This document shows, one piece after another, positions 4,153 through 42,698 of a DNA stretch of 64,000 nt (its first letter is position 1; every line of letters begins with the position of its first letter). A model generated the notes under the pieces. The model saw only the letters and a program-made list of their open reading frames with translations. It ran no database searches and was not told the origin of the DNA. Origin of the DNA: a virus; the IMG/VR virus record IMGVR_UViG_3300050501_000057; one strand, 5' to 3'. The position numbers were made by a program, and so were the translations under genes.

Positions 4153-7100
4153 CTATTCGTCTGATAATCCCGCCTTGATGATCTGCGAGTACTTGCTTGA
4201 TATCCTATTTTTGTATTGCTTCTTCTGTTGCGGCGTTAGTGTCTTGTCCTTCTCCACGTCTGCTCTCTGTTTCCATTTGTCTAGCGTCAGGTTGACGATT
4301 TCTTGTAACTCGGCGTCACTCACCTTCTCTCCCGTTTTAATCGCTCTCCGAGCGAGCGCCGCCGAGTCATCAAGAATCTCTTTACGTTCTTCCACCGGAG
4401 CAGTGGAAGGGTACTTGGTATCGTTGACGAGTTCTGTAAACACTCTGTCAATCAATACCTGAGTTTGTTTCTTACGCGCTTGGAAGTCCGCGACAGATTC
4501 ACCCTTCTTCGTATCGCGCTTCGGCGGAGTCATTGACCATCCAGTCTTCGCCGCTTCCTGCGTTACCGCGTTAGTCGTGTCCTGCTTTGTATTGAACGGG
4601 TCGAATCCGAGAGGTTGCTGAAGCTCCCGACCGAACACGTCAGTCTTAGCGGGTAGCGTCTGTCTATTGAAGTTCGGATTCAGCGGCGTCTTAGGTAAAC
4701 GCGCTTGCACTTCCTTCTTGATTGACTCTTTCAGACCTTCGCCCTTCTGCTCACGCTGTACTTTGTCTTGTACCGCCGCAGCTTCGCTCACAATCGCCGG
4801 TACTAAACTACCCGCGCCTATGAGTCTCTTCGCGTAGCTCTGCGCCTGCTTCGGATTCAAGAACTCGTCTGCGGTACGCGCCATCGGTAGACCGTCAGTA
4901 ACGAGCGTGCTAAAGAGTCTCAGATAAGCATCCACCCTAGTATTTTCGCCGGATAGTTCCTTATTTTGCGCACGGAACGCTGATGCTCCCGCGAGCATCA
5001 TCGTTCCGATTGGGGAGATAGCGCGAATATCAATCCAATGATTGCCGAGCTTCATATGTCCCGGTCCTGCGCCTTGAGCTATCCTGCGCTGTCTTTCCTT
5101 CTCGTCTTCGTCGCCGAATCCGTACATCAATCCAGCGGCGGCGAGCTTGTATCCGATGATAGAAAGAGTCAGACCGACCAGACCTCTACCGGCAGCTTCT
5201 ACTATTGCGGCGCGTGTGTCCGGGTCGTCAATCGCTTTCCAAGCTTTCTGCTTCAGCTTCTTGAAGTCCGCCTTGCTTATATCACGAAGCGTTTCTTTAC
5301 TGAGCGCGGTTGTAGCTTTAACAGCACTACCAATGAGAAGGTAATCCATTGTTTGAAGAAATATGTTGCTACCCGTTTTGATAAACGGGAGTTCGTAGTC
5401 GAGAACATATTTGATAACCTCCGACCGATTACCTTTCCATCGCTGGTATCCGGTATTGATGAAGTTGTCGTTCTGGAACACGGCGAACTCCGCAGCGCGC
5501 CACGCCATATCACTTTGAGCGACTGTTGGATTAGCTAGAACGTCGGCGATCTTTCGTCCGCCGTTCTTGTTCTCCAACCACGCGACCTCATACATAGCGC
5601 GGTTGTACGCATAAGTTCTGAACACCGCGTCCTGCGCCGCCTGGAAGCGAAACACGTACTTTGCGAAGTTCCCGACCGTAGCGTTGAGGACTCTCGCTCC
5701 CGCCTTACCTCCGGTCATCCACGACGGCGTAACGTGTGGATCGTATCCGAGATTGAATGTCTCATACGTCGCTCCGGTGTTACCCTTTACTATCGTATCC
5801 TTGAACGCCTTGAATCCTTCGGGAAGACTCTTTATTCCGTTCCATATTCCTCGCGCTGATATACCTTGTACGGTTCTATCCTTATCGGTAGACATCAGCG
5901 ATAACGCCATATCAAGCGGCGTAGCTCCGCGTTTCAATTCTTCTGCGATCAGATGCGCCAAGTTTGATATGCTGTTACGACCAGCGGTCTTGATACCCGA
6001 AAGCATTCCCGCTCTACGAGCGTTGAGTAAGAACTCGAAGATGTTCATCGAGCTTACGTTGTCAACGAAGTTTTGCAGATCATCAATAGCTTTATCGTGC
6101 TCAGTCTTATTGGTCGCTCTAAAACCTTGTTGCAGCAAATTGTAGAGGTCGCTCTTCTCGTTCTGATCAAGAGGTTCCCCCTTCGCCCATTCCGCGTGTC
6201 TCTCCCATTCCTTCGCGTCGTAAGTCAGAAGCTTGCGGTTGATGATCTGTTTGCGCGAGGTCGCCGAAAGACCGATGCGCGCAGGTAGCGCCATTTGTCT
6301 TACGAAGAAGTTTTCGTTTTCGTGTTTCGCCTGCTCACCACCCGCTATTCTGATTCGATCACCCATAGGCGACGACGCTTGAAAGTCGTTGATAACCTTA
6401 TCGCGGACTTGTGCGGCGCCGCTGATGTCCGCGACCATCTCTTTACTTACTTGCTTCTCCGCCGCTTGAGCGAAATCAATCGTACCGCTGTCTTCCGCTC
6501 CCGCGAGTTTCCAAATGTCTTTCTCGGAATACCAGAGAATAGCTTGCACATCTGCGGGAGTAATTTTGTTCTCGTGTCGTTTGTTATACTCGTTCGCTAT
6601 TCCCTGCATTGCGCCGCGAATGATGTCTCCATCCGTTCCGTTTACCGGCGTGTCCTGTGTTCCCTTCGGTGTAGTCGGATTGAGTAGACCGCCGTTGAGA
6701 CGATAGAACCAGCGGGACGCCCACATATCAACCGTAACAAGCTGAGAGAATCCTGCTATGTTGAGGAAGAATGCTCCGATCTTCGGACCTAAGACTTCTG
6801 TCGCTTTGTACGGATCATTCTCCGTGCTACCAGGAGATAACAGATATTCAAACACCCCGCCTATGTGACCGTACTTCTCAATCGCTTTCTCAAGCTCAGG
6901 ATCTTTCTTGTACCATTGCTGCGCTCCGTTGATCTTCTCGAACTCGTCAGTCTTCTTCAGTTCAACACCCTGCTTCTTCAGTTGCTTCTGTTCGTAGCTC
7001 CCGACCGGGACATACCCTTGCGTCAGAAAGTTGAACTTCTCAAGCTGTGGACCGAAGCGACCGTAGTTACTGCGCTCGACTATTTCACCCTTTTCTTTGT

Positions 7101-10100
7101 AAATAGTCGGAGTCTTCAGTTTAGTCGGGTACACTCTGTCGGTACCGTCTCTTCCAAGCTCGAACTCTTCAATCATTCGACGCCAGATATCCACCGCATA
7201 TTTATAGTTTTCCCTGACCTTGTTACCCTGTGAACTCATCGCAAGCGTAAGGTCGAACAATGCTCTCAACTGCGGGTGGTTCATCACCTCCGGGAAAGCT
7301 TGACCGGTAATCTCGTGCATCTTCTTGATTGACGCCGCGTACCAGGAAAGACCTGTATCCTGCTCTCCTTGTCGCTGACCCTGACCGCTCAAAGCTCTAC
7401 GCACTACCGCCAATCCGTCGCGCACAGCACGGCGCGCACGGATGGCGTTAGCGTCTTCGTCGGACAGTTTCTTGGTAGAAAAATCACCATATATTTCTGC
7501 CGTAGTTCCTTGTAAGAAATGCGCGACAACTATGTTTTGATTCTGTCCGATCTTGTCTTGATTGTTCATCAACCAATCGTGGAGATCGTTAGTCGTCGCC
7601 TTCGCTCGCTGCGTGAAGCTCTTCTTATACAGGTCGGTCAATTCCTGAATCTGTCTCTTCTCCGCCGCATCCTGCTTACGCTTCGATTGATAGACATCTC
7701 CGACGTTAAAAGTTACAACACCATTCGGAAGCTTTACTCTCACGCCGTCAGTTACGTCGAACTCGACTTTATTTTCTCGACTATAGTTCTCGCTACCGAT
7801 GCGACCGAGAGTAGTATTGCGAGTGAAAGGCGCTCTATAACTTCCCGAATCACCGATAAGAACACGACCAGTCTTATACCTTGCTCCCAATCTGATAGCG
7901 TTAGCGATGTCGAATTGAGAGTTGAGAACAATAAACACGCCGTCGTTAGCATCATAGGTTTTGTACCCCATCGAATTAAGCTCACGCTTCAACGCCTGAG
8001 TACGTCTCTTACTTCCTCCCGTCATTACGGCGAAGCGACCATCAGTAATGACCTTCTTCGCGTCACCGACCGTAACCGCGTCTCTGTCCTTGCGGTTGAT
8101 CTCGATCAACTTGCTTTCGACCTTATCATCTGCGGTGACAGCTTTCGGTATCTCTCCCTCGAATCCGTTGTCTATCGGTTGCGTGCGAAGGTCGCGGAAG
8201 TTGGATGAAGTAGTAGATAGAACCAGCGAATTAGGGTCTTTCTCAAATTTCTTCGATTTCTCTTCATTGCGTTTATCCACCTTTCTCAAAAAGCTTCGTT
8301 CTTCTGGATTGAAATCTCCGTTATTAAATGGCGACTTCACTTGTTCTGGTTTCCACACGATGTAATGTTCAGTGAGCATACCCCGGTCGTCGTACTTCAC
8401 ATCTTGCATAAAGCGCATATCGCCGAAGTATTCGTCAGCTATCATCTTCACGCCGTCGAATCCTGACGCTTCTATAGCTCTGCGAAGTATCTCCCCATTC
8501 GGAGAGGTTCCAGGTTCGATAACGTCGAAATCGAGGTATTCTTCCATATAACTCTCGATCATCGCGTCTTTCGCTGCATCGAAAGCTTGTCTATGGGTAA
8601 CGCTCCCGCCTTCGTACCAAAGCTCATCAGGTAAATTCTCTATGAACTTCGCCTTGACCTTCTCCGCCATAGCAACGTCTGTGAAATCGTTTACTGCTTC
8701 ATAGAAGTTATCTATAAAGTCAATGAGTGTACCTGTAGGTTCTCCCGTTTCTAGTTCATCAGCACCTTCTTCGGAAATTACTTCAACATCAGCGTGTAGG
8801 CGCTTCTCTCGCGGAACATTCTTACTGATGTCGAATAAATTCTTTGCGCTGATATACGCGGGGATTACGACTACTTCAGCTTTACCCGTCATCTCGCGCT
8901 TGATCTTATCTCTAAACAAGTCGTCGTCTTTGAGTTCTTGTATCTGTCCTTCCAGGTCTTCGCGCTCTTCATCACTCTCGGCGTCTTCCAACTGCGAGCG
9001 CAGTTCATCGAGTTGATACTCTCGCTCGCTCTCCGAATTCTCTATTCTGGACGAGATTCTATTAGTCAAATCCGCGCCGTCGTGACCATAGTTACCTGCG
9101 GCGTCACGCGCGTTTGTGCTGAAGTAGAACGCCTGACCTACGAAGTTCTCTATGCTGGCGTTCTTCTTATTGAATATCTCAAAGTCGTGAGTAGTTCCGT
9201 GATACGTGATCAGCGGAGAACCATCTTCGTCAACGACCTCACTATCTCCGAACCACTTCTTGAAATTCGCTTCACGGGTGTTTACTTCTTCACGATCACC
9301 TCGCGCTACCGCTCGCAGAATATCAGACACAGGATTCGTGCGAACCGTCACCGAGTTGAAGTAGTCCTTACCGATCTTGAGCAACTTCTCCCGCGCTTTG
9401 TCGTTTAATTGGTTCGCATTATCAATTCGATGCGGAAACACTCTTCCCGTATCCACGAGTTCTTTTAGAACGTCGTGAAACTTTTCGAGTCGTAGTTCGA
9501 GAAACTTATCCCTAAGCTCTTCGATAGATACTGGACCTTCGCCCTTCGTTAGCTCTCTAACGCCGGTGAAGAGTCGGTCTGCTCTTGTTTCTTCGGCGTG
9601 GAGGATGTCTCGCTGTCCTTGAGGTACTGCTTTGCTTGGTCCTTTTTCCCCGACCTGACTAGCGCCAGCACCTTTGCCAACCGCTTTTGCGCGAACTGCT
9701 TGTTTCGGTTCTTCATTTATATCTCTCCGTGACGCCTCTTTCATTATGGCGTCGAAATTGATCAACGCGTTTTCCGCGATGGTCTGTATGTCTTCGTTAG
9801 GGAATGCGTTGTTTAGCTCACTAGCTACTTCTACCAACGCGTCGTAGAGCAAATCGGGAGAAACGCCGAGGGAATCGTGATCACCCGTAGCTCCGTATGC
9901 GAGCACTTCTTGTAAGAAGTCGCGGGGATTTATATCCGTGAACTCTTCCCGAATAGTTTTGTCTTTTGAGGTCTGTAAATCGTTTAGTAGATTTCTAGTC
10001 GCGGTTCCGTCGCGGTAAAGGCGACGGATCGCGTCATCAGATACTTGTTTATCGAGAGCGACCGTGTGTATAGCTTCGTGCGCTCCTGCTACTGCGGCGT

Positions 10101-13100
10101 CATCATTCCTCACAGGGACTATCGCCGCTCCCGCGCGACCTTCAGCGGCGTTTTCCAACTGCTTCGCCACTCGTTTTAAACCCGCTTCGCGGAGTTCTTT
10201 TGCGATCTGAGGTACTTTGTCGCCTTTTACGGTGAGTCCTCTGTCTACTGACACCTCTAAAGCGTCCTCAATGGCGCTTCTAGCGTTGTCATTGACGTAA
10301 ATTACACCGTCCGCCCTATGAGACGCCTGCTTAGTCTCGGAAAAGTCGCCTAAACCGAGTTTTATGCGAATTCCGGTAGGTAATTTGACCTTCCCGGAGG
10401 GCGTTAAACGGCGTTCTTTGACTGTTTCGACCTGACTACGATCAACTTCACGCGGAGCATTCTCTCCCGCGACCTGGACAGTCAATCTGTCGCCATTTTC
10501 TTCGAGAATAGCGACCGGTTGCTGACTATTCCGCATATACCCGCGCTGAACCTGTTCTGCTTCGCGTCTACGGTACTCGTCAATAAGGAAATTACGCGCC
10601 TTCTTGCGCTCTTCAACGGCGTTGCGGAGTTGTTTCTTCTTCTCGTCAACAGACAGCTTGCTATTTTGCACTCTTGCCGTCGTAGTTTCGTAATTAAGGT
10701 CTGCTTGGTCCCACTTCGCAGCGATATCCTTCGGAAGAGTAATCCCCACTCGACCTACTTTGACCTTCTTCTCACCCTCTTTGATACTCTTCTGTTCCTT
10801 CTGGTACTGCTCTGAGGTCGTCTCAGCTTCCGCCGCTTCTTCCGCAGTCTGCGCAGTAGCTACTTTTCCTTCTTTCGCTTCTTCGAGAAACTTTCCGACC
10901 TCCCGCTCGTTCGCTACAAGCTGCGGATTCGCCTCAAATTCCTTGTTGGTCATACTCTGAATGGATGCCGAGTAGTCGCCTGTCTCTCCGGGAACAGTCG
11001 GGGTCTTCGATGGAGCGGCGAAGTTCTCGCCGATCACCTTCGCCAACGCCTGTTGTTCCTCAGTCGTGAGCTTCGATACTCTCTCGAACGCCGCCTGAGC
11101 GAATTCACCCTCTGTAGTTCCCTGAATCTTCTTCACGAAGCGCCGGTCAGCTTGTCTGAACAAGCTTCGGATCTCTTTCTCGTCGGTCGTAGCAAGCTTG
11201 TCATACGCCGACTCAAGATGACGCGACTCAGTGTCGGTCAACGAAGCTTCACGCTCAGCTTGCTTCTGTTCTCCCGCGCTTAGTACGACCCCGGATTTGG
11301 TATTGCTGGATTTTTCCCCGGTTTGTACTTTCGCTGCTTCTTCGCCGGTTTTGCTTCCTGCTTCTTGGGAGACGCTTTCCGCTTCGCTGCTCCCTCCTTC
11401 ACTTCCGCGTGGTGTTTGAAGTACTCCACTTGCTGAAGTCGGTTCACCGCTTCTTCCTTCGACAGATTCGGTTTCGATAGGTTCTTCCCCGACTCGCTCG
11501 TCACCTTGTACCCCGCTGACGTTTTCTTGATCATTGGTCTTTTCTCCCGCCGTGACTAGCTTACCCTTCTCCATACGAACGGTTTGCTCGCCACGTAAAT
11601 ACGCCGCTGTCTGCTCCGCAGTCATCTTAGGAAGAGCTACCTTCCCGACGCCTTTGAAGTCATTCAACGCCGAATCAAAGTCTTCGCTGGTCATAGATAC
11701 GAAAGGTATTCCACCTTTTTGCGCTTGCAATGCGTACTTCAGAACCAACGGGTGTTGTGGATCAATCTCCACAAGACTAACGTTCTCTCCCTGCTTAATA
11801 ACTCCCTGGAAGCGTATTTGTCCGTCTTCTCCCTGCGTCACGCCGAGAAAAGAACGTAATTCAGTAGGAACCGAACCACCTTCACCAACACCCTTCATCT
11901 GGTACCCTCCTTCGTGAGTACCCTTATGCGATCCTTCTCCCAACTCGAACGCCGCTCCGATAATCAAATTACTGAGCGCGTTCTCCCATTGAGGTACCTG
12001 ACCTTTAGCAATCTCTACGAAAGCATCTCCCGCGACTTCACCGATTCCGCCGCTCGCCATAGCTCCGCCTTTCGCGGCGAGTAACCCTACATCCTTCCCC
12101 GCGATCAGTCCTTTAAACGCCGTACCGAATGGAAGCTCTACGATTGATGACGCCACGGATTCAAGGAATTGATCCATAGGTTTGTCGGCGTCGCGTATTG
12201 CAGTGCTGTATATCAATCCTGCCGGTCCCATAACCGCGCCGCCCATCATATACACGGGAGAATAGACCACTTCCTTCATTGCTGCTTCCGCCATACGAGC
12301 GACGAAGCGACGACCCGAAGGAGTCTTCGCTTCGAGCGCGCCTTTTAACAAGCGAGCTTGCATCGCCTCCCGCGCTTTCTGACCTACGTACTCTCTTTTA
12401 CCCTTCTCGTCGGTGATAGCGTCAACGAGCGGAGCTTCTACGATCTGCTCGATGTTCATACCAGTACGCAACAGTTCGTTGATACCTCTCGCGGTACCTC
12501 TCTTGATCGCGTCTGTTAAGTCTTCGGTCAGCGTCTTCGGATACCTGGCGTCGAGTTCCGCTTGTAGCTCCGCCGCTCTTACGTCGTCTTTCGCCGCTTT
12601 CGCTTCTGATATCGCTTTCGAGTACTCTTCTTCAGCTACTCCCCGCTCGCTGTCTGCCATCTCCTGACGCATTCTTGCCGTTTCTCTCGCGTATTCACTA
12701 ACACCACCTTTAGCGAGAGCATTTATCCTATTCACTACCCAATTCTGAACCGGAACGTTACCTTCCGCGATAAACTTGTCTCCGACCTGACTGATGCGCA
12801 TAGCTCCCGACTCTATTTGACGCTTCAACCACTTCTCTCCCTCGTCAGGATCTAGGAATTCTCCCGGATTTTCCCCGGTCGCTTGTCTGAACGCCGCTGG
12901 AAGAGACGTATCTCCCGTGAGAGCGATAGTAACTGCGTCTCGTACCTCATCAGCGGTCAAATGCGGATTACCTTGCGCGTCTTTCTTTATCTCGAATGTC
13001 ACTGGAACGCTTCTATTGATCTTGTGCGGATGACTCGCGGGAGTAACTACGCCCATCTTTCCGCGTATCTCTTCATCGAGAGCTACCATAGCAGGGTCTA

Positions 13101-13989
13101 CACCCAACTTGTCTATGATAGCTAATCCCCGCTGCGCTGGATTCATCTCCATCAGCTTCTTCATCTCAGGATCATCGAGCGTACCCTTACCAATCGGGGA
13201 GCTTTCTTTCCCTTCCACGCCGGTTTTGGACTCCTGCGATGGAGGAACTATCAACCCCTCGTTAGCAGTATCGTACTTCTTAGCAAGCTCTTCTTCTGTT
13301 AATAGCGCAGGGAGATCGCTCCCCGAAGAGCGATCTCCTGCGCTCAGGTATTGTTTCAGATAATCAAGACGTTCTTTTGTATACTCCCTGGTATTGACCT
13401 TACCGTCTGATACATCAGGTACACCGTCTTCTCCCTTATCAAGCGATTTGATGACGTTCCCTCTTCCCGCGTGGTATGCAGCGAGAGCAAGAGCTATCCT
13501 GTGATCCTGACTTTGTACTCTCTTGTCCTTACCAAGTTCGTCATAGTCAGTACGGAGGTTCTTTACTCCCGCCATAAACTTGTAATAGGGATTCTGAAAC
13601 TCTTCGTCAGTGAATCCGAGTCCTTTTGCAGTCTTCGGGAGTACTTGCATTCCCCCGCTCGCTCGCTGACCTTTGGGAAGCTTACCGTATGTACTCTCTC
13701 CCTCTTCCAAGTTTCCGCTCGACTCCCCGCGAAATACGCTCTTCCATATCCCGCGCCACGTATTGTCATCGAGGTCGGAAGGTTTGTAGTGCGCAGCGAT
13801 ATTGTCGAGGTCAGTATCCTCGTCTCCGGTGAGCGTATATCCGTTTGCTGTACTGGTAGTGTCACCTCCCGATGGTCCGGTACCTTTTTTGGTACCCCCT
13901 CCCGCGTTGCTGTCTACTAGCAACTCGTCGGTGGTCGTGGGTGCGTCTGATGGAACGGAGAGTGCTCTTTTTTTAGGGTCGGTTGCCAT
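4153..13989 (-). CDS. Giant polyvalent internal virion/ejection protein: lytic transglycosylase, HExxH, ART-like, glycosylase-like and C-terminal helical domains
   Basis: 3278 aa. SLT motifs GESSG / ASGGMQVLPKTA / ALAAYHAG; GAHEAIH; NFKKWFGDS..PLITYHGT..FYFS; GPKIGAFFLNI..VTVDMW..VQAILW. Confidence 0.85.
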   Translation of the reverse strand: MATDPKKRALSVPSDAPTTTDELLVDSNAGGGTKKGTGPSGGDTTSTANGYTLTGDEDTDLDNIAAHYKPSDLDDNTWRGIWKSVFRGESSGNLEEGESTYGKLPKGQRASGGMQVLPKTAKGLGFTDEEFQNPYYKFMAGVKNLRTDYDELGKDKRVQSQDHRIALALAAYHAGRGNVIKSLDKGEDGVPDVSDGKVNTREYTKERLDYLKQYLSAGDRSSGSDLPALLTEEELAKKYDTANEGLIVPPSQESKTGVEGKESSPIGKGTLDDPEMKKLMEMNPAQRGLAIIDKLGVDPAMVALDEEIRGKMGVVTPASHPHKINRSVPVTFEIKKDAQGNPHLTADEVRDAVTIALTGDTSLPAAFRQATGENPGEFLDPDEGEKWLKRQIESGAMRISQVGDKFIAEGNVPVQNWVVNRINALAKGGVSEYARETARMRQEMADSERGVAEEEYSKAISEAKAAKDDVRAAELQAELDARYPKTLTEDLTDAIKRGTARGINELLRTGMNIEQIVEAPLVDAITDEKGKREYVGQKAREAMQARLLKGALEAKTPSGRRFVARMAEAAMKEVVYSPVYMMGGAVMGPAGLIYSTAIRDADKPMDQFLESVASSIVELPFGTAFKGLIAGKDVGLLAAKGGAMASGGIGEVAGDAFVEIAKGQVPQWENALSNLIIGAAFELGEGSHKGTHEGGYQMKGVGEGGSVPTELRSFLGVTQGEDGQIRFQGVIKQGENVSLVEIDPQHPLVLKYALQAQKGGIPFVSMTSEDFDSALNDFKGVGKVALPKMTAEQTAAYLRGEQTVRMEKGKLVTAGEKTNDQENVSGVQGDERVGEEPIETESVEGRSGEPTSASGVLQTPRGSEGGSSEAESVSQEAGSKTGEEAAKVQTGEKSSNTKSGVVLSAGEQKQAEREASLTDTESRHLESAYDKLATTDEKEIRSLFRQADRRFVKKIQGTTEGEFAQAAFERVSKLTTEEQQALAKVIGENFAAPSKTPTVPGETGDYSASIQSMTNKEFEANPQLVANEREVGKFLEEAKEGKVATAQTAEEAAEAETTSEQYQKEQKSIKEGEKKVKVGRVGITLPKDIAAKWDQADLNYETTTARVQNSKLSVDEKKKQLRNAVEERKKARNFLIDEYRRREAEQVQRGYMRNSQQPVAILEENGDRLTVQVAGENAPREVDRSQVETVKERRLTPSGKVKLPTGIRIKLGLGDFSETKQASHRADGVIYVNDNARSAIEDALEVSVDRGLTVKGDKVPQIAKELREAGLKRVAKQLENAAEGRAGAAIVPVRNDDAAVAGAHEAIHTVALDKQVSDDAIRRLYRDGTATRNLLNDLQTSKDKTIREEFTDINPRDFLQEVLAYGATGDHDSLGVSPDLLYDALVEVASELNNAFPNEDIQTIAENALINFDAIMKEASRRDINEEPKQAVRAKAVGKGAGASQVGEKGPSKAVPQGQRDILHAEETRADRLFTGVRELTKGEGPVSIEELRDKFLELRLEKFHDVLKELVDTGRVFPHRIDNANQLNDKAREKLLKIGKDYFNSVTVRTNPVSDILRAVARGDREEVNTREANFKKWFGDSEVVDEDGSPLITYHGTTHDFEIFNKKNASIENFVGQAFYFSTNARDAAGNYGHDGADLTNRISSRIENSESEREYQLDELRSQLEDAESDEEREDLEGQIQELKDDDLFRDKIKREMTGKAEVVVIPAYISAKNLFDISKNVPREKRLHADVEVISEEGADELETGEPTGTLIDFIDNFYEAVNDFTDVAMAEKVKAKFIENLPDELWYEGGSVTHRQAFDAAKDAMIESYMEEYLDFDVIEPGTSPNGEILRRAIEASGFDGVKMIADEYFGDMRFMQDVKYDDRGMLTEHYIVWKPEQVKSPFNNGDFNPEERSFLRKVDKRNEEKSKKFEKDPNSLVLSTTSSNFRDLRTQPIDNGFEGEIPKAVTADDKVESKLIEINRKDRDAVTVGDAKKVITDGRFAVMTGGSKRRTQALKRELNSMGYKTYDANDGVFIVLNSQFDIANAIRLGARYKTGRVLIGDSGSYRAPFTRNTTLGRIGSENYSRENKVEFDVTDGVRVKLPNGVVTFNVGDVYQSKRKQDAAEKRQIQELTDLYKKSFTQRAKATTNDLHDWLMNNQDKIGQNQNIVVAHFLQGTTAEIYGDFSTKKLSDEDANAIRARRAVRDGLAVVRRALSGQGQRQGEQDTGLSWYAASIKKMHEITGQAFPEVMNHPQLRALFDLTLAMSSQGNKVRENYKYAVDIWRRMIEEFELGRDGTDRVYPTKLKTPTIYKEKGEIVERSNYGRFGPQLEKFNFLTQGYVPVGSYEQKQLKKQGVELKKTDEFEKINGAQQWYKKDPELEKAIEKYGHIGGVFEYLLSPGSTENDPYKATEVLGPKIGAFFLNIAGFSQLVTVDMWASRWFYRLNGGLLNPTTPKGTQDTPVNGTDGDIIRGAMQGIANEYNKRHENKITPADVQAILWYSEKDIWKLAGAEDSGTIDFAQAAEKQVSKEMVADISGAAQVRDKVINDFQASSPMGDRIRIAGGEQAKHENENFFVRQMALPARIGLSATSRKQIINRKLLTYDAKEWERHAEWAKGEPLDQNEKSDLYNLLQQGFRATNKTEHDKAIDDLQNFVDNVSSMNIFEFLLNARRAGMLSGIKTAGRNSISNLAHLIAEELKRGATPLDMALSLMSTDKDRTVQGISARGIWNGIKSLPEGFKAFKDTIVKGNTGATYETFNLGYDPHVTPSWMTGGKAGARVLNATVGNFAKYVFRFQAAQDAVFRTYAYNRAMYEVAWLENKNGGRKIADVLANPTVAQSDMAWRAAEFAVFQNDNFINTGYQRWKGNRSEVIKYVLDYELPFIKTGSNIFLQTMDYLLIGSAVKATTALSKETLRDISKADFKKLKQKAWKAIDDPDTRAAIVEAAGRGLVGLTLSIIGYKLAAAGLMYGFGDEDEKERQRRIAQGAGPGHMKLGNHWIDIRAISPIGTMMLAGASAFRAQNKELSGENTRVDAYLRLFSTLVTDGLPMARTADEFLNPKQAQSYAKRLIGAGSLVPAIVSEAAAVQDKVQREQKGEGLKESIKKEVQARLPKTPLNPNFNRQTLPAKTDVFGRELQQPLGFDPFNTKQDTTNAVTQEAAKTGWSMTPPKRDTKKGESVADFQARKKQTQVLIDRVFTELVNDTKYPSTAPVEERKEILDDSAALARRAIKTGEKVSDAELQEIVNLTLDKWKQRADVEKDKTLTPQQKKQYKNRISSKYSQIIKAGLSDE

Positions 13990-23053: not shown

Positions 23054-23305
23054 TTACTTGCTCCCGCGCTTGCGTTGAATAGTGCGCCAAGCATCATAGC
23101 TTGCGCGTTTCCAGAATATGCGCGCACGCTCCATTGAGCTTGTACCTGCGCATTTCCACAAATCAAGACCGCCACATTCGACAAGTTGCTCTTGAAAGAA
23201 AAACGAGCGAACCTGACGAAACTCGCGGTCATCCTTCGCGCTGACCGGGGGAGTGTCGCCCCCGGTCCACGCGGTACGCTCATCCGGTACCTGCTTACTC
23301 TTCAT
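23054..23305 (-). CDS. Hypothetical early protein
   Basis: RBS GGAGGG before ATG 23305; overlaps the stop of the upstream gene. Confidence 0.6.
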   Translation of the reverse strand: MKSKQVPDERTAWTGGDTPPVSAKDDREFRQVRSFFFQEQLVECGGLDLWKCAGTSSMERARIFWKRASYDAWRTIQRKRGSK

Positions 23306-23588
23306 TCTCTCCCTCCGTAATGTGGGGTTCGTTACGCGAGTCCTCCGCATATGCGGAGGGTATACGCTCCGAACACTGTTGACAATAGCAGTCCGCATCT
23401 TCGTAATTGATGCCGACGAACGCGGGACGAAATCCCTCTAGCTCGTCCGCGTCCTCGTCCGACTTACGAGCACAAGCGGGACACAACACGCTGTGTTGTT
23501 TGTCGTAGTAGTAGAGCGGATAACCACCGGGGAAAGCATATTGCGAAAGTCTTCCGTCGTCATCGCGTGGAAGTCCGGGAAGTGACAT
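23295..23588 (-). CDS. Small zinc-binding phage protein; first gene of the early operon
   Basis: YAFPGGYPLYY..CPAC..NYED..CQQC..IPSAY; RBS AAAGGAG. Confidence 0.8.
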   Translation of the reverse strand: MSLPGLPRDDDGRLSQYAFPGGYPLYYYDKQHSVLCPACARKSDEDADELEGFRPAFVGINYEDADCYCQQCSERIPSAYAEDSRNEPHITEGENEE

Positions 23589-23616
23589 AACAAAATCTCC
23601 TTTCAAACTGCGTTTT

Positions 23617-23671
23617 GTGTTTCGGCGATCAATTACGCCTTCATCAGTAGCAAGACATACTTGCTAGACAC
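23617..23671 (-). ncRNA. Type III hammerhead ribozyme
   Basis: Minus strand GUGUC/UAGCAAG-UAUGU-CUUGCUA-CUGAUGA-A-GGCG-UAAUUGAU-CGCC-GAA-ACAC. All three stems and the core are present; predicted cleavage after GUC, between 23667 and 23666. Confidence 0.88.
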
Positions 23672-24085
23672 GCGCGGCATTTAAACGGTATCGCTTCGCT
23701 ACTGCAACGCCAGTGCGCTTGTGAGGCGCTTTACCCTGTGCGTTGTATACGCTCATTCCTCCGATGATACTTCTGTGGACTACTCAACATCATCTCCCCG
23801 TACTTTATTCGGTCGCTGGCGCTCGCCGCGCTCTGTGGACGACGTTTTGATGACGCTTTCGCCGTATCATTCCGCGTTTCGGTCAGTACTTCACAGCGCC
23901 GCTCTATCCTTCTGAGCTTAGCGCGGCGTCCCTTTACTAAGCGATGTCTTTACGCTTTCGCTACTACCGCGCGCTCTGCTTTCCCCGACCTACAAGTTGT
24001 CAATGCGCTTTCGCGCCGTTGCTGGACTCGAAACATCAACCTAACCGGTCCTAAGTCCCTACTACCAACAACCTCAATCAACCTT
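23672..24085 (-). ncRNA. Large structured leader RNA, copy A
   Basis: ORF-poor ~410 nt between promoter and hammerhead; sequence blocks and stems homologous to 27336-27960. Confidence 0.7.
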
Positions 24086-24093
24086 GAAAGCGG

Positions 24094-24122
24094 AGTGTAC
24101 AACAAGAAAATTCAACCGTCAA
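24094..24122 (-). promoter_or_regulatory. Strong sigma70 promoter, leftward
   Basis: Minus strand TTGACG-N17-TACACT with an A-tract UP-like element upstream. Confidence 0.85.
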
Positions 24123-24336
24123 TACTTTTTTTCGATTTTCTTTGTCTCAACGCATTTTTTTTCGATCTCCCTTGTATCTTCTATATGCGCCAGTTTCCGC
24201 CCGTATAGCAACTTCCGTGCCATACGCCGGGGAGTCGAATTTTGAAATTGAAAACGGATTTCAAGGACCAAAGCGGTCCCTCTAGGATGTCTAGGGGAAC
24301 CGCCGTGTACAGATAGGCAACCGGGAAGGAGTTTAG

Positions 24337-25164
24337 CTAATTGAACAATCCAACCTTCTCTAAAATCGAAAGCGTGTTTTCTACCGCCTCTTCCTCGATC
24401 CTCAAAAGTTTTGCATCGTCTTTGGTCTTTAAACCACTCAAGGCGAGCTTCACCTTATCGAATATGTGATATCGAAAGTCTATGTGTAGAAATTCGTGGG
24501 CGATTGTCGCTTTAGCTTCGTATGACTCGAACATAGGGGAAGGAAAGAAAAGATGCGCGGTCAAGTAAGTCGGATCAATAACAGCGGCGGCGAGGTCTGT
24601 TTTCAATATTGGCGCATAACCGATCTCCCGCAAACGTCGGTTGATTGCACGGTGTGAAGCATAGTTGATCTGAACTGAGAAAACTTGAAGGTCAAGGAAG
24701 CTGTACATACGCTTGCAATAGGTCTTCAACCATTCGGGAGTCCCTTTATCCACAAACACAACATCCCTATGCTCTATCTTGTTCGCATCTCGAAGATAGT
24801 TGATGACCGAGTGTGCATTGTCTGTACTGTCCATCAGATTACCGAGCGCACGATTACAGCTATTACAAAGAAGACCTCTCACCTTCCCGGTTTTATGATC
24901 GTGATCAATAGCAAGATCAAACAAAGTTCCGCTCGGATGTCTCTTCGTCTCTCGCTTATGACAGACAGCGCACTTATTTTTTTGCGCCTTCATCATTTCA
25001 TCGAACTGCTCAACGGTCAGTCCATACTTTTTGACCTTATCCATTTTCCGTTGAAGTTTTACATCTCTTCGTGTCTTAGACCTGGGGATGGAGATTCCCA
25101 ACCTCTTACGTTCTAGGTATCGCTTCTTTTTTTCTAGCTGAGTTAGGGGACTTTTCTTTTCCAT
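24337..25164 (-). CDS. Endonuclease VII-type HNH domain fused to an HExxH domain
   Basis: KYGLT..CAVC..LAIDHDHKTGKVRGLLCNSCNRALG; C-terminal TIAHEFLH...EEE. Confidence 0.85.
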   Translation of the reverse strand: MEKKSPLTQLEKKKRYLERKRLGISIPRSKTRRDVKLQRKMDKVKKYGLTVEQFDEMMKAQKNKCAVCHKRETKRHPSGTLFDLAIDHDHKTGKVRGLLCNSCNRALGNLMDSTDNAHSVINYLRDANKIEHRDVVFVDKGTPEWLKTYCKRMYSFLDLQVFSVQINYASHRAINRRLREIGYAPILKTDLAAAVIDPTYLTAHLFFPSPMFESYEAKATIAHEFLHIDFRYHIFDKVKLALSGLKTKDDAKLLRIEEEAVENTLSILEKVGLFN

Positions 25165-25469
25165 AGGTGAACCTCATTTTGTCTAGTCTATTTGAAAAAA
25201 TCTGTCAAGTCTTATGTCGGTCGTCTATACGAACAACTTCTTCAAAACAGATTTTTCGATCAATGTTGATAAGGGTTCTAGCGGTCGTCTCCACAAATGG
25301 CGTAGAAAAATATTTTTCAAGCACCTTTGACTCATATCATTCATACCGGAGAACCCCCTCTTAAAACGCTTCTAAACGCGAAATCGGACTATGTAGCGTT
25401 CTACAATGATGCTTGCTGAACCATATAGTTAAGTGACTATCTAATATGGTTCTATCAACATCATTTATA

Positions 25470-25874
25470 TTATTTATCGTAGACCGCTCTCAATTGTTCA
25501 ATCGTTGCTCCGTGCTGAAGCAGGAACTTGAATATTTCCTCCCGCATTTCAAGTTGTTGGCACCTCTTCAACAGGTCGGCGTAGTCTTGCGTCCTCTTCA
25601 AGATGTGCGCTTCTGCGATTTGCAGAGCGTTTACTTGCTGCTCTTTGATGAACTGCGCAGGTTTCCACGGAAGTTGAATACACCGGCAGTTGATACGAGG
25701 CGAGCACCCGCAAGACTTCGGAGCGTTTATGTCGTGGCGTCGCGGTACTGGTTGAAGCACCTCATCGAAAACTGTTTTCCTTTGGTCTGACAGTTCAGAC
25801 ATAGCACGTTCTTTCTCTTCTCCTAACGTCTGTTGTACTTCATTGATTACGTCTAGCAATTCATAAGTTGGCAT
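25470..25874 (-). CDS. Hypothetical protein
   Basis: 134-aa ORF coupled to the upstream gene. Confidence 0.65.
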   Translation of the reverse strand: MPTYELLDVINEVQQTLGEEKERAMSELSDQRKTVFDEVLQPVPRRHDINAPKSCGCSPRINCRCIQLPWKPAQFIKEQQVNALQIAEAHILKRTQDYADLLKRCQQLEMREEIFKFLLQHGATIEQLRAVYDK

Positions 25875-26193
25875 TGTTTTTTCTCCTATAGTAGTTGTCT
25901 AACGCTGTTTGCGACCGGCAGTCCCTACAGTCATTCGACAGACTGTCTTTACCTTCACCGATCACGTAAAAGTTCTCGCTATCTGCGGGTAATTCCTCCC
26001 CGCACTGCTTACAAGTCTTCAGACCTGTTTCCGCCTGACGCTTATAAGCTTCCTGGCGCTCTACAGTCTTCGAGCTTAGGACTCGATTTCTGTAATACCA
26101 CTTGAGAGCAGACTGTCTATGTCGCTGCGCTCTCGTCTTTTCATCCAGCTTTTTCATCCGACTCTCCTGCATACGTATCATATTTATGCTCAA
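25861..26193 (-). CDS. Basic zinc-finger protein
   Basis: KTCKQCG..F..DCRDC; start uncertain. Confidence 0.7.
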   Translation of the reverse strand: MSINMIRMQESRMKKLDEKTRAQRHRQSALKWYYRNRVLSSKTVERQEAYKRQAETGLKTCKQCGEELPADSENFYVIGEGKDSLSNDCRDCRSQTALDNYYRRKNNANL

Positions 26194-26317
26194 ATTTTTT
26201 CGATCTACCTGTACATTTTGACCTCAAAACGAGATCGAGTGCAACCTCAACAGAATTAAACTTTTCACTTCTACAAAGTACTTTACGACACAAAGTGAGG
26301 GTCTTTTTTCCCTTCAG

Positions 26318-26330
26318 AATCAACAAGTTG
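26318..26330 (+). promoter_or_regulatory. IHF-like consensus site
   Basis: AATCAA-CAAG-TTG matches WATCAANNNNTTR in the AT-rich divergent region. Confidence 0.35.
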
Positions 26331-26422
26331 TCAAATTGCTCTTGACAAGTTCAATGCTGCGCCAGTTATTATTAGCTCGTTCTTCATACTTACTTCCTAA
26401 ACATTCCTACAAAGCTTCATAT

Positions 26423-26462
26423 GCAAATTGATTGCTCTCTCCAAAGAGAGCAATCAATTTGC
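26423..26462. repeat. Perfect 18-bp inverted repeat
   Basis: GCAAATTGATTGCTCTCT-CCAA-AGAGAGCAATCAATTTGC. Confidence 0.95.
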
Positions 26463-26529
26463 TTCTCTTCTTAAACACTCTGAAGAAATAAAAAAAAAAA
26501 GGGTATAACCTCTTCTTTATAAACTCTGT

Positions 26530-26572
26530 GCTGAATTGCTCTCCGGTCTATAGAACCGGAGAGCAATTCAGC
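26530..26572. repeat. Perfect 18-bp inverted repeat
   Basis: GCTGAATTGCTCTCCGGT-CTATAGA-ACCGGAGAGCAATTCAGC. Confidence 0.95.
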
Positions 26573-26750
26573 TAGCTGTATACAAGTGTCAGTCGGGAGG
26601 TTCAATCACTCATTCCCCGGCGTAATTTGGTAAACCCTCCCGGAACCTTGCATATAAGAATTTTTCGGAGTAGTTTTATACTGGTCGCGGACAAAGAAAG
26701 AAAAGGTTCCGCGCAAAAGAAAGAAAACGAAAAACAAAAGAGGTTCACCA

Positions 26751-27302
26751 ATGAAAAAGAAAGATACGAAGAAGACAGAGAAACCGAAGAAGTCAGAAGG
26801 TCCAAACAGGAAGAAGACACCCGCGAAGAAGCGCATACCTTCCAAAGTCATCAAAAGTACAAAGCAGAGAACAGAGACGAGGCGGCGGGCGGTCGAACGC
26901 GCCGCCGCTCAATTACGCCGGTTCGCTATTCCTTTTGAACTCGGCGACTCCATCATCATTGCTACGCGACACAAGGTTATGATCGCCTTCGATCACCCGG
27001 AAGATTCTATACCCGGACTGAGGGCGCACGCGGAAGCGACAGGTACGAGGTTCGTTCATATTGACGCCGACTACTTCTCACTCCCTACCTTGTTTGATGC
27101 AATGGTCGTGGACGCTATCAATGCCAAACCGATCTACGCCGGGTCGAAGAAGGGAATCGTTCCCCCGGTCAAAATTCCTGACATCATAAAGCAGGGTGGT
27201 CCAAAACCTCATTTGTCCGTAACTAAGGACAAATCGGGTAAATCCTCCCGCGCAAAGAAAGTCGAAAAAATTTCTACAAGACGCTTGACACCTTCCAGGT
27301 AG
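26751..27302 (+). CDS. Basic hypothetical protein
   Basis: 183 aa, Lys-rich ends; GAGGTTCAC upstream of the ATG. Confidence 0.75.
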   Translation: MKKKDTKKTEKPKKSEGPNRKKTPAKKRIPSKVIKSTKQRTETRRRAVERAAAQLRRFAIPFELGDSIIIATRHKVMIAFDHPEDSIPGLRAHAEATGTRFVHIDADYFSLPTLFDAMVVDAINAKPIYAGSKKGIVPPVKIPDIIKQGGPKPHLSVTKDKSGKSSRAKKVEKISTRRLTPSR

Positions 27303-27313
27303 AAGCGTATCGT
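27285..27313 (+). promoter_or_regulatory. Strong sigma70 promoter, rightward
   Basis: TTGACA-N17-TATCGT with an A-tract upstream. Confidence 0.85.
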
Positions 27314-27319
27314 TCGGTT

Positions 27320-27966
27320 CGTCGGTGATGGTTATTTGATAAATCGTAGGTCGAGAAAGTCGTGGCGACGGTCTTAGTCAGAAATGGTCAACGCCGTCAG
27401 TAAGCGCCGGAAAGGATGGACGCCAACGACGAAGGGTAGACCGAAGCGGTGACTCGCATACGCTAGCGCGAGAGAAGCAACAGGTACGCTAGCAGGTGCG
27501 AGGGCGCGCGGAAAACATAACGGGTTATCTTCACACTGAAGAGTTATCAAGAGAGGTTCACACCGTTGAGGCGAGGGAGCGCAAAGCTCCCCGTACAACA
27601 ACGTCGCTCCAATCCGTAACGCAGAAGACGCCAACCAACCATCGCAAATTCCCTCAAAAGGAAATCCATAGTTGAGCGCGTAAGTAAACGTTGAGCGCGT
27701 AATTGCTGTGCGGTTGTTGAGAATCCTCCGCTTAATAAGGCATCGAAGGAACACGCGTTGAACTTGCGATTTCACTCACCGAATTTTTAGGGGAGGATAC
27801 GCAGTCAACGAGCGGTGCGCTAATTAAGTCGCAAACACCCGAACAAAGTATCGTGCGTATCAACAGAAGGACTCTGCATATAGCGGACAATCCGAAGTAG
27901 TTGGTAGCTGCGCCCTCCACGTTCAATCTACCGCGAGCAAGACATTTCTTGCGCTGACCTTTCAGG
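27320..27966 (+). ncRNA. Large structured leader RNA, copy B
   Basis: About 640 nt with no credible plus-strand ORF; many stems; blocks homologous to copy A. Confidence 0.7.
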
Positions 27967-28024
27967 TCCAACTCATAACCAAACGCTTTTATGACCTGGA
28001 TAGTTACCGCAAGAGTCTTGAGCG

Positions 28025-28138
28025 GTTCAAGGATTGAATAGAAGGTACCGACCTGACCAGACAGCGGACTCGAAGCGACATATACTAAGCTTCCTCTCCG
28101 TAGGACTCCACACGGTACCTTCTGTTGAATCCTTGAAC
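28025..28138 (+). ncRNA. Structured RNA cassette 1 (26-bp closing helix)
   Basis: GTTCAAGGATTGAATAGAAGGTACCG pairs with CGGTACCTTCTGTTGAATCCTTGAAC (one G-G, one G-U). Confidence 0.6.
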
Positions 28139-28146
28139 GTTCGTAG

Positions 28147-28287
28147 AGGATTGAATAAAGGCGCTCTATTGACCTTCCATTTAATGCGGGTTCGAGTCCC
28201 GCCATTCTGATAGTAGCTAACGCGAGATCGGGATGTGGCGCCGAATGGTAAGGCGGATGGAAGGATCGAGCGTCTTTATTCAATCCT
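28147..28287 (+). ncRNA. Circularly permuted tRNA mimic (YrlA/Y-RNA-like topology)
   Basis: Order is long helix, T-arm (GCGGG-TTCGAGT-CCCGC), closed acceptor stem (CATTCTG/CGGGATG), D-arm (CGCC-GAATGGTAA-GGCG), long helix. Confidence 0.8.
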
Positions 28288-28302
28288 TTTACCAGCGCGG
28301 AA

Positions 28303-28698: not shown

Positions 28699-28843
28699 CC
28701 CGCATTGAATACTTCGGGAGTATTCACGTCCGTTGGAGGTTCGAGTCCTCCCGCCTGCGCAGCGCGCGGACGTAGCTCAATGGTAGAGCGCCGGGATTGA
28801 AACCGGAGGGTGACGAAGTTGGTTCAACTCCTAACTATGCGGG
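28699..28843 (+). ncRNA. Second permuted tRNA mimic, opened in the variable region
   Basis: CCCGCAT/ATGCGGG closes a T-arm (GGAGG-TTCGAGT-CCTCC), hairpin acceptor, D-arm (GCTC-AATGGTA-GAGC), anticodon-like arm and a second T-loop hairpin. Confidence 0.7.
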
Positions 28844-32669: not shown

Positions 32670-32710
32670 GCGGCGCGGTCGGGTAGGTAATTTGACCGCG
32701 CCGCCTTTTT
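32670..32710 (+). terminator. Intrinsic terminator
   Basis: GCGGCGCGGTC..GACCGCGCCGC followed by CTTTTT. Confidence 0.8.
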
Positions 32711-33552: not shown

Positions 33553-34015
33553 TCGTGCGTTCGCTATCGAACACAACAAGAAACAACTCAAGCTCGACAA
33601 GCTACGAGAGCAAGCTCGGCGAGAACTCCCGACGCTTGAGGTAGAAATAAAAGAAATTCGAGAACAGGCGGCGCAGCTTTGGTGGGAAATATGCGAAGCT
33701 GAAGGTTTAACGCCTGAGCAAATACAACGCGGAGAGCGATTGTTTACCAGCGATGAAAACTATGCGCTCGCCGAGAAGTGCGACATCGTAACCAAGCTAT
33801 TCACCGCAAAGCTGAAGAGGTACAAAGTATACTGCGACCTACTCGGCATCAAACCAAATCTCAAAGAAAGAGGTTCACAAAGCAATGAGCGAAATAACAG
33901 CAACGTTGGAGAGGGCGACAAAGGTTCAACCGGTACCCGACTCCGACAACCTAGACCTAATCAACGTCGGCGGGTTCCCGGTCGTGGTGCGGCGCCACAG
34001 CATAGGAGAAAATGA
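33539..34015 (+). CDS. Hypothetical coiled-coil protein
   Basis: 158 aa; C-terminal tail overlaps the ligase gene. Confidence 0.65.
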   Translation: MTPVDRAFAIEHNKKQLKLDKLREQARRELPTLEVEIKEIREQAAQLWWEICEAEGLTPEQIQRGERLFTSDENYALAEKCDIVTKLFTAKLKRYKVYCDLLGIKPNLKERGSQSNERNNSNVGEGDKGSTGTRLRQPRPNQRRRVPGRGAAPQHRRK

Positions 34016-34979
34016 TTTCGTGATCTACTTCCCTCCCGATCTTGAGCTACCGCCGTTCGTCAGTCACTCGCTCGGAGTCATCGAGTACTTGAAGAAATTC
34101 AAGTATGTCAAAGCGGTCAGACTTCGAGGTCAAGTGAGTATGGGTATTGCGCTCCCGCTCAATACTCCCGGATTTGAGAAGCTGATCAGCTACTTTGAAC
34201 AAGAGTACTGGTCTGCGGATCAGCACGGCGAAGGTACTGATGTTGATTGGTACTTCGGTACCAAGCGGTTCGTACCAGTGCTCAATGAGAGCATCAAGAG
34301 ATCAATGGGTCGGGAGATCCAATCTCACCCGCTGTTGTTCAAATATACCGACATCGAGCGATTGGAGAAGCATCGGTATTCTTTCAACGCCGATGAAGAG
34401 GTCGTCATTACCGAGAAGATTCACGGTACTAACGTCCGCATCGCTTGTATTGCGGGTCAAGTGATGGTCGGGAGTCACAACACACAACGCGAGCTACCTG
34501 GAACACCCGACGAAGCGATGAAGAACTTCTATTGGTTCCCGATCTCAATCCCCGGCGTCGAAAGACTGATCAAGGAACTTGGGAAGGATCATCAACAGGT
34601 TATTCTGTTCGGTGAAACCTACGGTAAGGGAGTTCAAGGTGGATTCTCTTACGGGAAAGAAGGACTCGCATTCGCGGCGTTCGATCTGATGCTTGACGGG
34701 AACTACGTTGACTATCCGCGCTTCATTTCGCTGATGACGGATTACGACGTACCTAGCGTTCCCATTGATTACACCGGACCTTACACGGAAGATGTAGTTG
34801 AGCTATTCCGTGACGCTCCATCCTGGTTCACCCGTGATCAAATCAGAGAAGGCGTGGTTATCAAACCGCGCTTCGAGCGCACGCAAGGACGTTTGGGACG
34901 CCTGATACTGAAGGCGATTAACCCGGAGTACTCGGTTCGTAAATCCGCTGGAAAAGTGGAAGATAATCCGATAGTATAG
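33885..34979 (+). CDS. ATP-dependent RNA ligase, DRB0094/Rnl5-like
   Basis: N-terminal OB-like module (DSDNLD..VIYFPPD..VKAVRLRGQVSMG); motif I TEKIHGTN, FGETYG, FDL, REGVVIK, ILKAINPEY. Confidence 0.9.
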   Translation: MSEITATLERATKVQPVPDSDNLDLINVGGFPVVVRRHSIGENDFVIYFPPDLELPPFVSHSLGVIEYLKKFKYVKAVRLRGQVSMGIALPLNTPGFEKLISYFEQEYWSADQHGEGTDVDWYFGTKRFVPVLNESIKRSMGREIQSHPLLFKYTDIERLEKHRYSFNADEEVVITEKIHGTNVRIACIAGQVMVGSHNTQRELPGTPDEAMKNFYWFPISIPGVERLIKELGKDHQQVILFGETYGKGVQGGFSYGKEGLAFAAFDLMLDGNYVDYPRFISLMTDYDVPSVPIDYTGPYTEDVVELFRDAPSWFTRDQIREGVVIKPRFERTQGRLGRLILKAINPEYSVRKSAGKVEDNPIV

Positions 34980-35617: not shown

Positions 35618-35650
35618 TAGGGCGGAGCAATAGCTCCGCCCTATATTTTT
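35618..35650 (+). terminator. Intrinsic terminator
   Basis: TAGGGCGGAGC-AATA-GCTCCGCCCTA-TATTTT. Confidence 0.7.
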
Positions 35651-42627: not shown

Positions 42628-42698
42628 GATCGGGAACAATAATTCAACTAACTGTGGCGGGCGGTAATGCGTCCGCTTTTTCTTTGGAGGAACGCTCG

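Follow-up and report, generated by a model that had tools for sequence, protein, structure and literature searches.

A duplicated cassette carrying a predicted structured leader RNA in a tailed phage from a rhizosphere metagenome

The locus and its duplicated cassette

The window, by which we mean the whole stretch of 64,000 nucleotides that was analysed, comes from a tailed phage and was assembled from a rhizosphere metagenome, as part of a contig of about 74 kb; all of its sampled words occur in run X1 and 96% of them in run X2. According to domain and family matches, it encodes a large terminase, a helicase, a primase-helicase, a DNA polymerase and an RNA ligase. When compared at the DNA level with 50,697 phage records it yielded zero matches, its proteins have only distant relatives (<37% identity) among phage records, and a search of IMG/VR with three proteins neighbouring the RNAs described below returned zero relatives. 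Elsewhere in the window, a 3278-aa polyvalent virion protein (4153-13989, minus strand) combines an SLT lytic transglycosylase domain with an ART-PolyVal ADP-ribosyltransferase domain, and a 569-aa protein (60530-62239, minus strand) has weak C-terminal matches to Hint/intein domains, below the Pfam cut-offs.

The genes diverge at about 26200-26750. To the left, the order is two small ORFs, the N-terminus of one being HNH-like, a 275-aa Endonuclease VII/HNH ORF, copy A of the RNA and a gene block that extends to the start of the window. To the right, the order is a basic ORF of 183 aa, copy B, a cluster of RNA genes and the replication genes. It had been claimed from the sequence that the leaders head both units, which has to be relaxed for copy B: it is not at the very head, as ORF 26751-27302 lies upstream on the same strand. 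The interval between the two RNAs (24337-27302) is dense in endonuclease-like ORFs, among them a 110-aa ORF with both endonuclease VII and HNH PHROG matches, and the divergent intergenic region holds two perfect 18-bp inverted repeats (26423-26462 and 26530-26572) with a common AATTGCTCTC core, which could be operators or bidirectional terminators. The first gene 3' of copy A (23295-23588, minus strand, ATG at 23588) encodes a small conserved four-cysteine zinc-ribbon-like protein with 84 metagenome homologues, and the RNA is found upstream of it only in the window's own lineage.

Copy B is followed by a 126-nt hairpin, two YrlA-like modules, tRNA-Tyr and tRNA-Met. The hairpin (28020-28145, plus strand) is near-perfect (z -7.4), and its stem has GGATTGAATA in common with the stem of the adjoining Y-like module. 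The two modules, which resemble bacterial Y RNAs (28145-28290 and 28711-28812, plus strand), have a long stem enclosing a tRNA-like T-arm and score 26.4 and 35.8 bits against Rfam, where the gathering score is 69; the first of them folds at -72.3 kcal/mol (z -7.7). The RNA ligase gene (33885-34979) lies downstream of these modules.

Each RNA is preceded by a promoter-like site and, further upstream, by an 18-nt motif.

24174-24157 and 24144-24127, minus strand: upstream motif ahead of copy A, in two tandem copies
24094-24122, minus strand: promoter-like site ahead of copy A (TTGACG, 17 nt, TACACT; 9 of 12 consensus positions)
27253-27270, plus strand: upstream motif ahead of copy B, 18 nt, CAAAGAAAGTCGAAAAAA; 17 of 18 letters agree with 24144-24127
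27285-27313, plus strand: promoter-like site ahead of copy B (TTGACA, 17 nt, TATCGT; 10 of 12 consensus positions)

The motif, CAAAGAAARTCGAAAAAA, stands upstream of both promoter-like sites in the same orientation relative to each RNA, with a 17/18 match. Exact TCGAAAAAA matches number five in the window, and four of these five fall inside the 3.2-kb control region 24127-27270. The distance from the upstream A-tract to the -35 hexamer is 4 nt in A and 14 nt in B, so that the two tracts are one helical turn apart, a spacing which fits the consensus subsites of an UP element. From the presumed start to the RNA there are about 16 nt for B and about 84 nt for A. Both sites had been described as strong sigma70 promoters; the sites are indeed present, as matches to the consensus, and promoter-like sites across the region occur without enrichment (12 found against 8.3 +/- 2.8 expected). 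We infer from their sequence that the two sites may be active promoters. The cassette as a whole, made up of the 18-nt motif, the promoter-like site and the folded leader RNA, has been duplicated and is present in two diverged copies.

Two related RNAs and their fold

The total length of the RNA is about 370 nt for A and about 640 nt for B. All of the shared blocks that the sequence-only reading had quoted are present, in their places, in both copies, and a conserved 5' domain of about 120-135 nt (119-135) can be delimited in each.

24003-23979, minus strand: first shared block of copy A
23884-23878, minus strand: second shared block of copy A
23840-23829, minus strand: third shared block of copy A
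23812-23801, minus strand: fourth shared block of copy A
23779-23770, minus strand: fifth shared block of copy A
23871-24005, minus strand: conserved 5' domain of copy A (30.9 bits with a B-only model)
27336-27359, plus strand: block TTGATAAATCGTAGGTCGAGAAAG of copy B
27439-27445, plus strand: block GACCGAA of copy B
27804-27814, plus strand: block GTCAACGAGCG of copy B
27839-27850, plus strand: block CCGAACAAAGTA of copy B
27860-27869, plus strand: block TCAACAGAAG of copy B
27334-27452, plus strand: conserved 5' domain of copy B, the source stretch of covariance model R1

Several comparisons place the similarity of the 5' domains above chance. The two copies align by blastn over 121 nt at 62.8% identity (E 0.02), and their local alignment score of 26 is reached by none of 668 same-length control segments from the window, the highest of which scores 24. 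Model R1, a covariance model built from the 5' domain of B alone with helices P0, P1 and P2, recovers A over its full length at 30.9 bits (rough E 4.8e-6), and the runner-up in the 128 kb of sequence searched scores 19.0 bits. Because MAFFT misaligned A and B, both as whole molecules and as 5' domains, the A+B alignment was fitted with a single-sequence covariance model. When the earlier claim of two collinear homologous RNAs is set against these controls, the 5' domain stands, whereas the 3' part exceeds chance weakly and in one of four gap settings. A claim of homology over the full length is thus overstated, but paralogy is supported at least for the 5' domain and the 18-nt upstream motif, and we consider it very probable that the RNA is real and that A and B are paralogous.

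The helices of the 5' domain are as follows.

23990-23987/23884-23881, minus strand: helix P0 of copy A
23978-23971/23899-23892, minus strand: helix P1 of copy A
23970-23967/23926-23923, minus strand: helix P2 of copy A
23961-23954, minus strand: GAAA-loop hairpin of copy A
23917-23914/23904-23901, minus strand: helix P3 of copy A
23942-23937/23921-23916, minus strand: possible pseudoknot of copy A
27349-27352/27439-27442, plus strand: helix P0 of copy B
27359-27367/27421-27430, plus strand: helix P1 of copy B
27368-27371/27394-27397, plus strand: helix P2 of copy B

In the proposed fold, P0 is a GGUC/GACC pairing that closes a two-step stem in which P2 comes directly after P1. CUUAGU would lie in the P2 loop, and UAAGC and a hairpin, P3, with AGGAU in its loop would lie between the 3' strands. 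The stems named in the sequence-only reading do pair in both copies. In the A+B alignment, 94% of cells are paired, and 6 of the 17 helix pairs have changed on both sides without losing their pairing, the alignment being biased toward the structure used to fit it. When it is slid by 1-3 columns, 0-2 such pairs are left, and 4 of 500 shuffles do as well.

There is also evidence independent of this alignment: other soil and rhizosphere runs contain contigs of related phages, at a depth of 2-5 and each a single observation. The X5 contig is about 85% identical over 23857-23960, and the X6 contig is not independent of it, since both derive from the same sample. In the X5/X6 contig, the P1 of seven pairs and a G-G mismatch is replaced by eight perfect pairs through changes on both strands, as derived from the listed substitutions and 1-nt indels, which were applied by script, together with a 30-letter loose end that was read by eye. 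P0 becomes GGUU/GACC, which introduces a wobble pair, and the P3 stem is kept with an altered loop. All three versions seen keep AGGAU in the loop of the P3 hairpin, and none of them varies the CTTA and TAAG letters; a CTTAG/CTAAG pseudoknot would be possible in both A and B. The minimum free energy of the whole molecule is ordinary in each case (z +0.37 for A and -1.14 for B). The predicted helices are supported by the compensatory changes, both those between A and B and those in the related metagenome contigs.

Downstream of the 5' domain, the two copies carry the following elements.

23762-23852, minus strand: 3' domain of copy A; helix 23846-23838/23794-23786 around GTCCACAGAGCG, a hairpin and CCGAATAAAGTA, then TCCACAGAAG at 23779-23770
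23648-23666, minus strand: terminal hairpin of copy A, with a stem of 7 bp; the ribosome-binding site and ATG at 23588 follow about 55 nt later
27453-27795, plus strand: B-specific insert of about 340 nt, with many 1-2 nt indels in related contigs
27462-27468/27487-27493, plus strand: hairpin in the B insert
27500-27507/27910-27917, plus strand: predicted long-range helix of copy B
27575-27591, plus strand: GCAAA-loop hairpin in the B insert
27671-27702, plus strand: tandem 13-nt duplication in the B insert
27796-27869, plus strand: 3' domain of copy B; helix 27796-27803/27854-27861 around GTCAACGAGCG, a hairpin and CCGAACAAAGTA, with TCAACAGAAG next
27937-27952, plus strand: terminal hairpin of copy B by predicted fold (GCAAGA-CAUU-UCUUGC), similar to that of A by blastn

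The enclosing helix of the 3' domain has an energy of -12.5 kcal/mol in A and -13.0 kcal/mol in B, values that 97 and 58 of 2000 shuffles, respectively, attain as well, and in the two copies the helix stands in a different register with respect to the conserved blocks. When the copies are aligned collinearly over the span from the enclosing helix through the terminal hairpin, significance is attained in one of four gap settings, where the observed score is reached by 7 of 830 controls and by 9 of 300 shuffles; the other three settings give no significance, and model R2, built from the 3' domain of A, fails to find B at E up to 10. The 12-mer CCGAAYAAAGTA occurs in the window only in A and B, the pattern having been derived from these two sequences. 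The 3' domains of A and B may be homologous, for which these comparisons offer weak support. The equivalence that had been claimed for the last pair of blocks, GGTAAAGCGCCTCAC/GGTAGCTGCGCCCTCCAC, does not hold for the predicted structure: the block folds locally into a hairpin in A, while in B it supplies one of the strands of a long-range helix.

Related contigs also bear on the hairpins outside the 5' domain. In the X4 contig, four of the seven pairs of the A terminal hairpin are changed and all are still paired, three of them via changes on both sides, and in an X5 contig, as read by eye, the B insert hairpin (27462-27468/27487-27493) exchanges two pairs on both sides. Neither terminal hairpin is followed by a U-tract, and no terminator-like site is listed at either. 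Copy A and its leader (23846-24014, minus strand) further contain three GCGAAAGCG hairpins with a GAAA tetraloop and alike 3' flanks; in B, these are without counterpart at the same positions.

The leaders had been called free of ORFs, which is not strictly correct, as mechanical ORFs overlap both copies. We reject a coding role for them: Pfam and PHROG have no match for any of the six, a search of 5.8 billion clusters yielded zero homologues of the 133-aa antisense ORF, and the related contigs carry several 1-2 nt indels within the overlapping ORFs.

Searches for known families and for relatives

The view that the RNAs belong to an unrecognised family was borne out by Rfam 15, in which neither A nor B has a match at the gathering score. 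When each copy alone was compared with Rfam at E up to 10, A gave only an 18.6-bit chance match to snoZ248 and B gave none. The lack of a match excludes ROOL, GOLLD, OLE, HEARO, group I introns, RNase P and the known riboswitches as catalogued, and A and B therefore constitute an uncatalogued structured RNA family. A likeness to RNase P was considered on account of GGAAAG and ACAGAA, which we take to be conserved regions of that RNA; it was rejected, since Rfam is silent and the strand adjacent to GGAAAG pairs locally in P1.

Among the collections searched, homologues of A and B are confined to near relatives in soil and rhizosphere runs. Phage records searched by DNA for RNA homologues gave only chance matches inside coding genes. 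Homologues were not found in IMG/VR by DNA pattern: successive patterns gave 6 chance matches, then 0 and 30, and none of the 30 scores with covariance model R3. At 80 metagenome loci around homologues of the zinc-ribbon protein there was no blastn or motif match, the best R3 score being 15.8 bits (E 0.43), and a search of GTDB genomes by the 3' pattern returned four matches, which is chance level, with no 5' domain nearby.

Two further candidates concern known antitermination systems. The core of boxA in its E. coli form is of the GCUCUUU type. The 5' block had been called boxA-like, yet none of the ten GCTCYTTR matches in the window lies in 23600-24130 or 27280-28000. A boxA 12-mer is known from Aquifex (PMC3177189). 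Upstream of B, the ORF for a basic protein of 183 aa (26751-27302) includes an arginine-rich stretch; it falls into no Pfam or PHROG family and has three homologues, and its structural neighbours are DUF559 endonuclease-like (TM 0.39-0.48, below the tool's bar). In view of these weak DUF559-like neighbours and of only three homologues, we regard it as an unconvincing candidate for an N-like antiterminator.

Possible functions and the nearest known systems

The gene blocks behind the two RNAs had been described as rich in terminators. This holds insofar as terminator-like sites are about 1.6-fold enriched, A's block having 33 (expected 20.0 +/- 5.4) and B's block 35 (expected 21.3 +/- 4.9), but many of these are weak, on the non-transcribed strand or within ORFs. 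Strong co-directional terminator-like hairpins located between genes are found at the following positions.

23067-23046, minus strand: strong terminator-like hairpin
15753-15711, minus strand: strong terminator-like hairpin
32670-32704, plus strand: strong terminator-like hairpin
35618-35643, plus strand: strong terminator-like hairpin
42656-42677, plus strand: strong terminator-like hairpin

No terminator-like site is listed between either RNA and its downstream genes, so that each RNA would be co-transcribed with the genes behind it. Based upon the terminator enrichment, the co-transcription and the promoter-proximal position of the conserved domain, we prefer a role in the control of elongation in cis. 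The copies of the cassette sit ahead of the leftward and the rightward gene blocks, and in such a model the leader RNA would act in cis on the RNA polymerase that transcribes it. The RNA would then stay with the polymerase or recruit a factor, after which the polymerase would read through the terminator hairpins inside both blocks. By analogy, antitermination, whether put-like or nut-like with a partner, is a possible function of the A and B leaders that we put forward tentatively; from position alone, the model is plausible. Its most specific form, in which a two-domain leader loads onto RNA polymerase alone and confers terminator resistance over operons of >20 kb, as a put-type element that is an unrelated and larger RNA, is rather improbable.

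Several observations count against antitermination. Firstly, there is no boxA core and no convincing N-like protein nearby. Secondly, A and B exceed put in length by a factor of 5 to 9, with no detected likeness to it. Thirdly, internal promoters offer phage operons a way around their terminators, and several promoter-like sites do follow the terminator-like sites here. Also to be counted on this side are the ordinary minimum free energies, the weak 3' homology and a body of comparative evidence that consists of two paralogues and low-depth contig fragments. Lastly, B is followed directly by very stable tRNA-like and Y-RNA-like modules and by tRNAs, which a stand-alone RNA would fit equally well.

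According to this last alternative, A and B would be stable non-coding RNAs that act in trans, in the manner of ROOL and GOLLD or as a decoy or sponge for a host factor, and would be processed from the operon transcript, their promoter proximity reflecting only high early expression. Their size (370-640 nt), two-domain build, variable linker and the three GAAA-loop hairpins of A are reminiscent of ornate RNAs, B heads a cluster of non-coding RNAs, and the RNA-only assemblies of ROOL and GOLLD, which occur in phages (PMC12286853), provide a precedent. However, there is no Rfam family match, neither copy ends in a terminator, A is far from any tRNA and the best conservation is found in the promoter-proximal 5' domain, all of which leaves a stand-alone RNA somewhat unlikely.

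Alternatively, A and B could be leaders that work after transcription, with the 5' domain binding a ligand or a protein or shielding the 5' end, thereby influencing the stability, processing or translation of the mRNA. Such a role would suit the 5' domain, which is compact (120-135 nt), has its helices nested and some of its unpaired letters conserved, and may form a pseudoknot. The AGGAU conserved in the P3 loop of three versions would suit it too, and the first gene has its ribosome-binding site and ATG about 55 nt past the end of A. This is nonetheless an unlikely explanation: no known riboswitch or leader family in Rfam matches, the genes that come after B are RNA genes and not coding ones, no alternative pairing that would involve the ribosome-binding site is obvious, and restriction to one phage lineage would be unusual for a metabolite sensor. 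Finally, the similarity of A and B might reside in the DNA, as a duplicated promoter or operator, or be partly due to chance, with the remaining blocks and stems coincidental, and it is true that the 18-nt motif and promoter-like sites are DNA elements that were duplicated too, that the 3' similarity appears in one of four gap settings with R2 missing B and that the minimum-free-energy z-scores are ordinary; such a reading is very unlikely in light of the compensatory changes in P1, the terminal hairpin and the B-insert hairpin of related contigs, the 6 of 17 pairs that differ on both sides between A and B (0-2 in slid controls) and a shared domain that reaches >100 nt downstream of the presumed starts.

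Whichever function applies, the two RNAs add a family of structured RNAs to those catalogued, one that has GNRA hairpins and a core able to form a pseudoknot, and its source is an uncultivated lineage of soil phages. Among known systems, three invite comparison. ROOL and GOLLD are present in phages and assemble into RNA-only complexes (PMC12286853). Like them, A and B are large multi-helix non-coding RNAs borne by a phage, and copy B adjoins tRNA genes. Unlike them, A and B lie directly behind promoter-like sites and head protein-coding operons, copy A is away from tRNAs, and neither copy has a match to these families at E up to 10.

The nut sites of lambda consist of boxA and boxB and operate with the N protein and Nus factors. 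They share with the RNAs described here the provision of promoter-proximal RNA signals in both early operons and the use of GNRA-type loops, of which A has three GCGAAAGC hairpins and B a GCAAA pentaloop hairpin. In contrast to nut, A and B have no boxA core, and their GNRA hairpins are at non-equivalent positions.

To our knowledge, RNA-only control of transcription elongation is understood in detail from one phage system, the put elements of HK022. A put RNA binds the beta-prime zinc-binding domain of RNA polymerase and suppresses termination. In this phage, putL and putR are two sequence-similar RNAs of about 70 nt, each with two stem-loops, that are located downstream of two early promoters and need no protein factors; putL comes right after PL, and putR is at a distance of about 270 nt from the start of PR (PMC9378689). 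The parallels are that both phages place two similar RNA copies behind two promoters, putative ones in the present case, at unequal distances from the start sites, and that the RNAs head long terminator-containing operons with which they are co-transcribed, as the layout suggests here. The differences lie in the RNA itself: A and B have a 5' domain of nested P0, P1 and P2 followed by a second domain, span 370-640 nt versus about 70, and have no detected similarity to put in sequence or fold. HK022 put is thus the closest analogue in layout and not a relative of A and B. If A and B do work like put, then RNAs of this sort would have arisen in phages on more than one occasion and in quite different folds, and a second, larger model would be at hand for how a nascent RNA reprograms the RNA polymerase that makes it.
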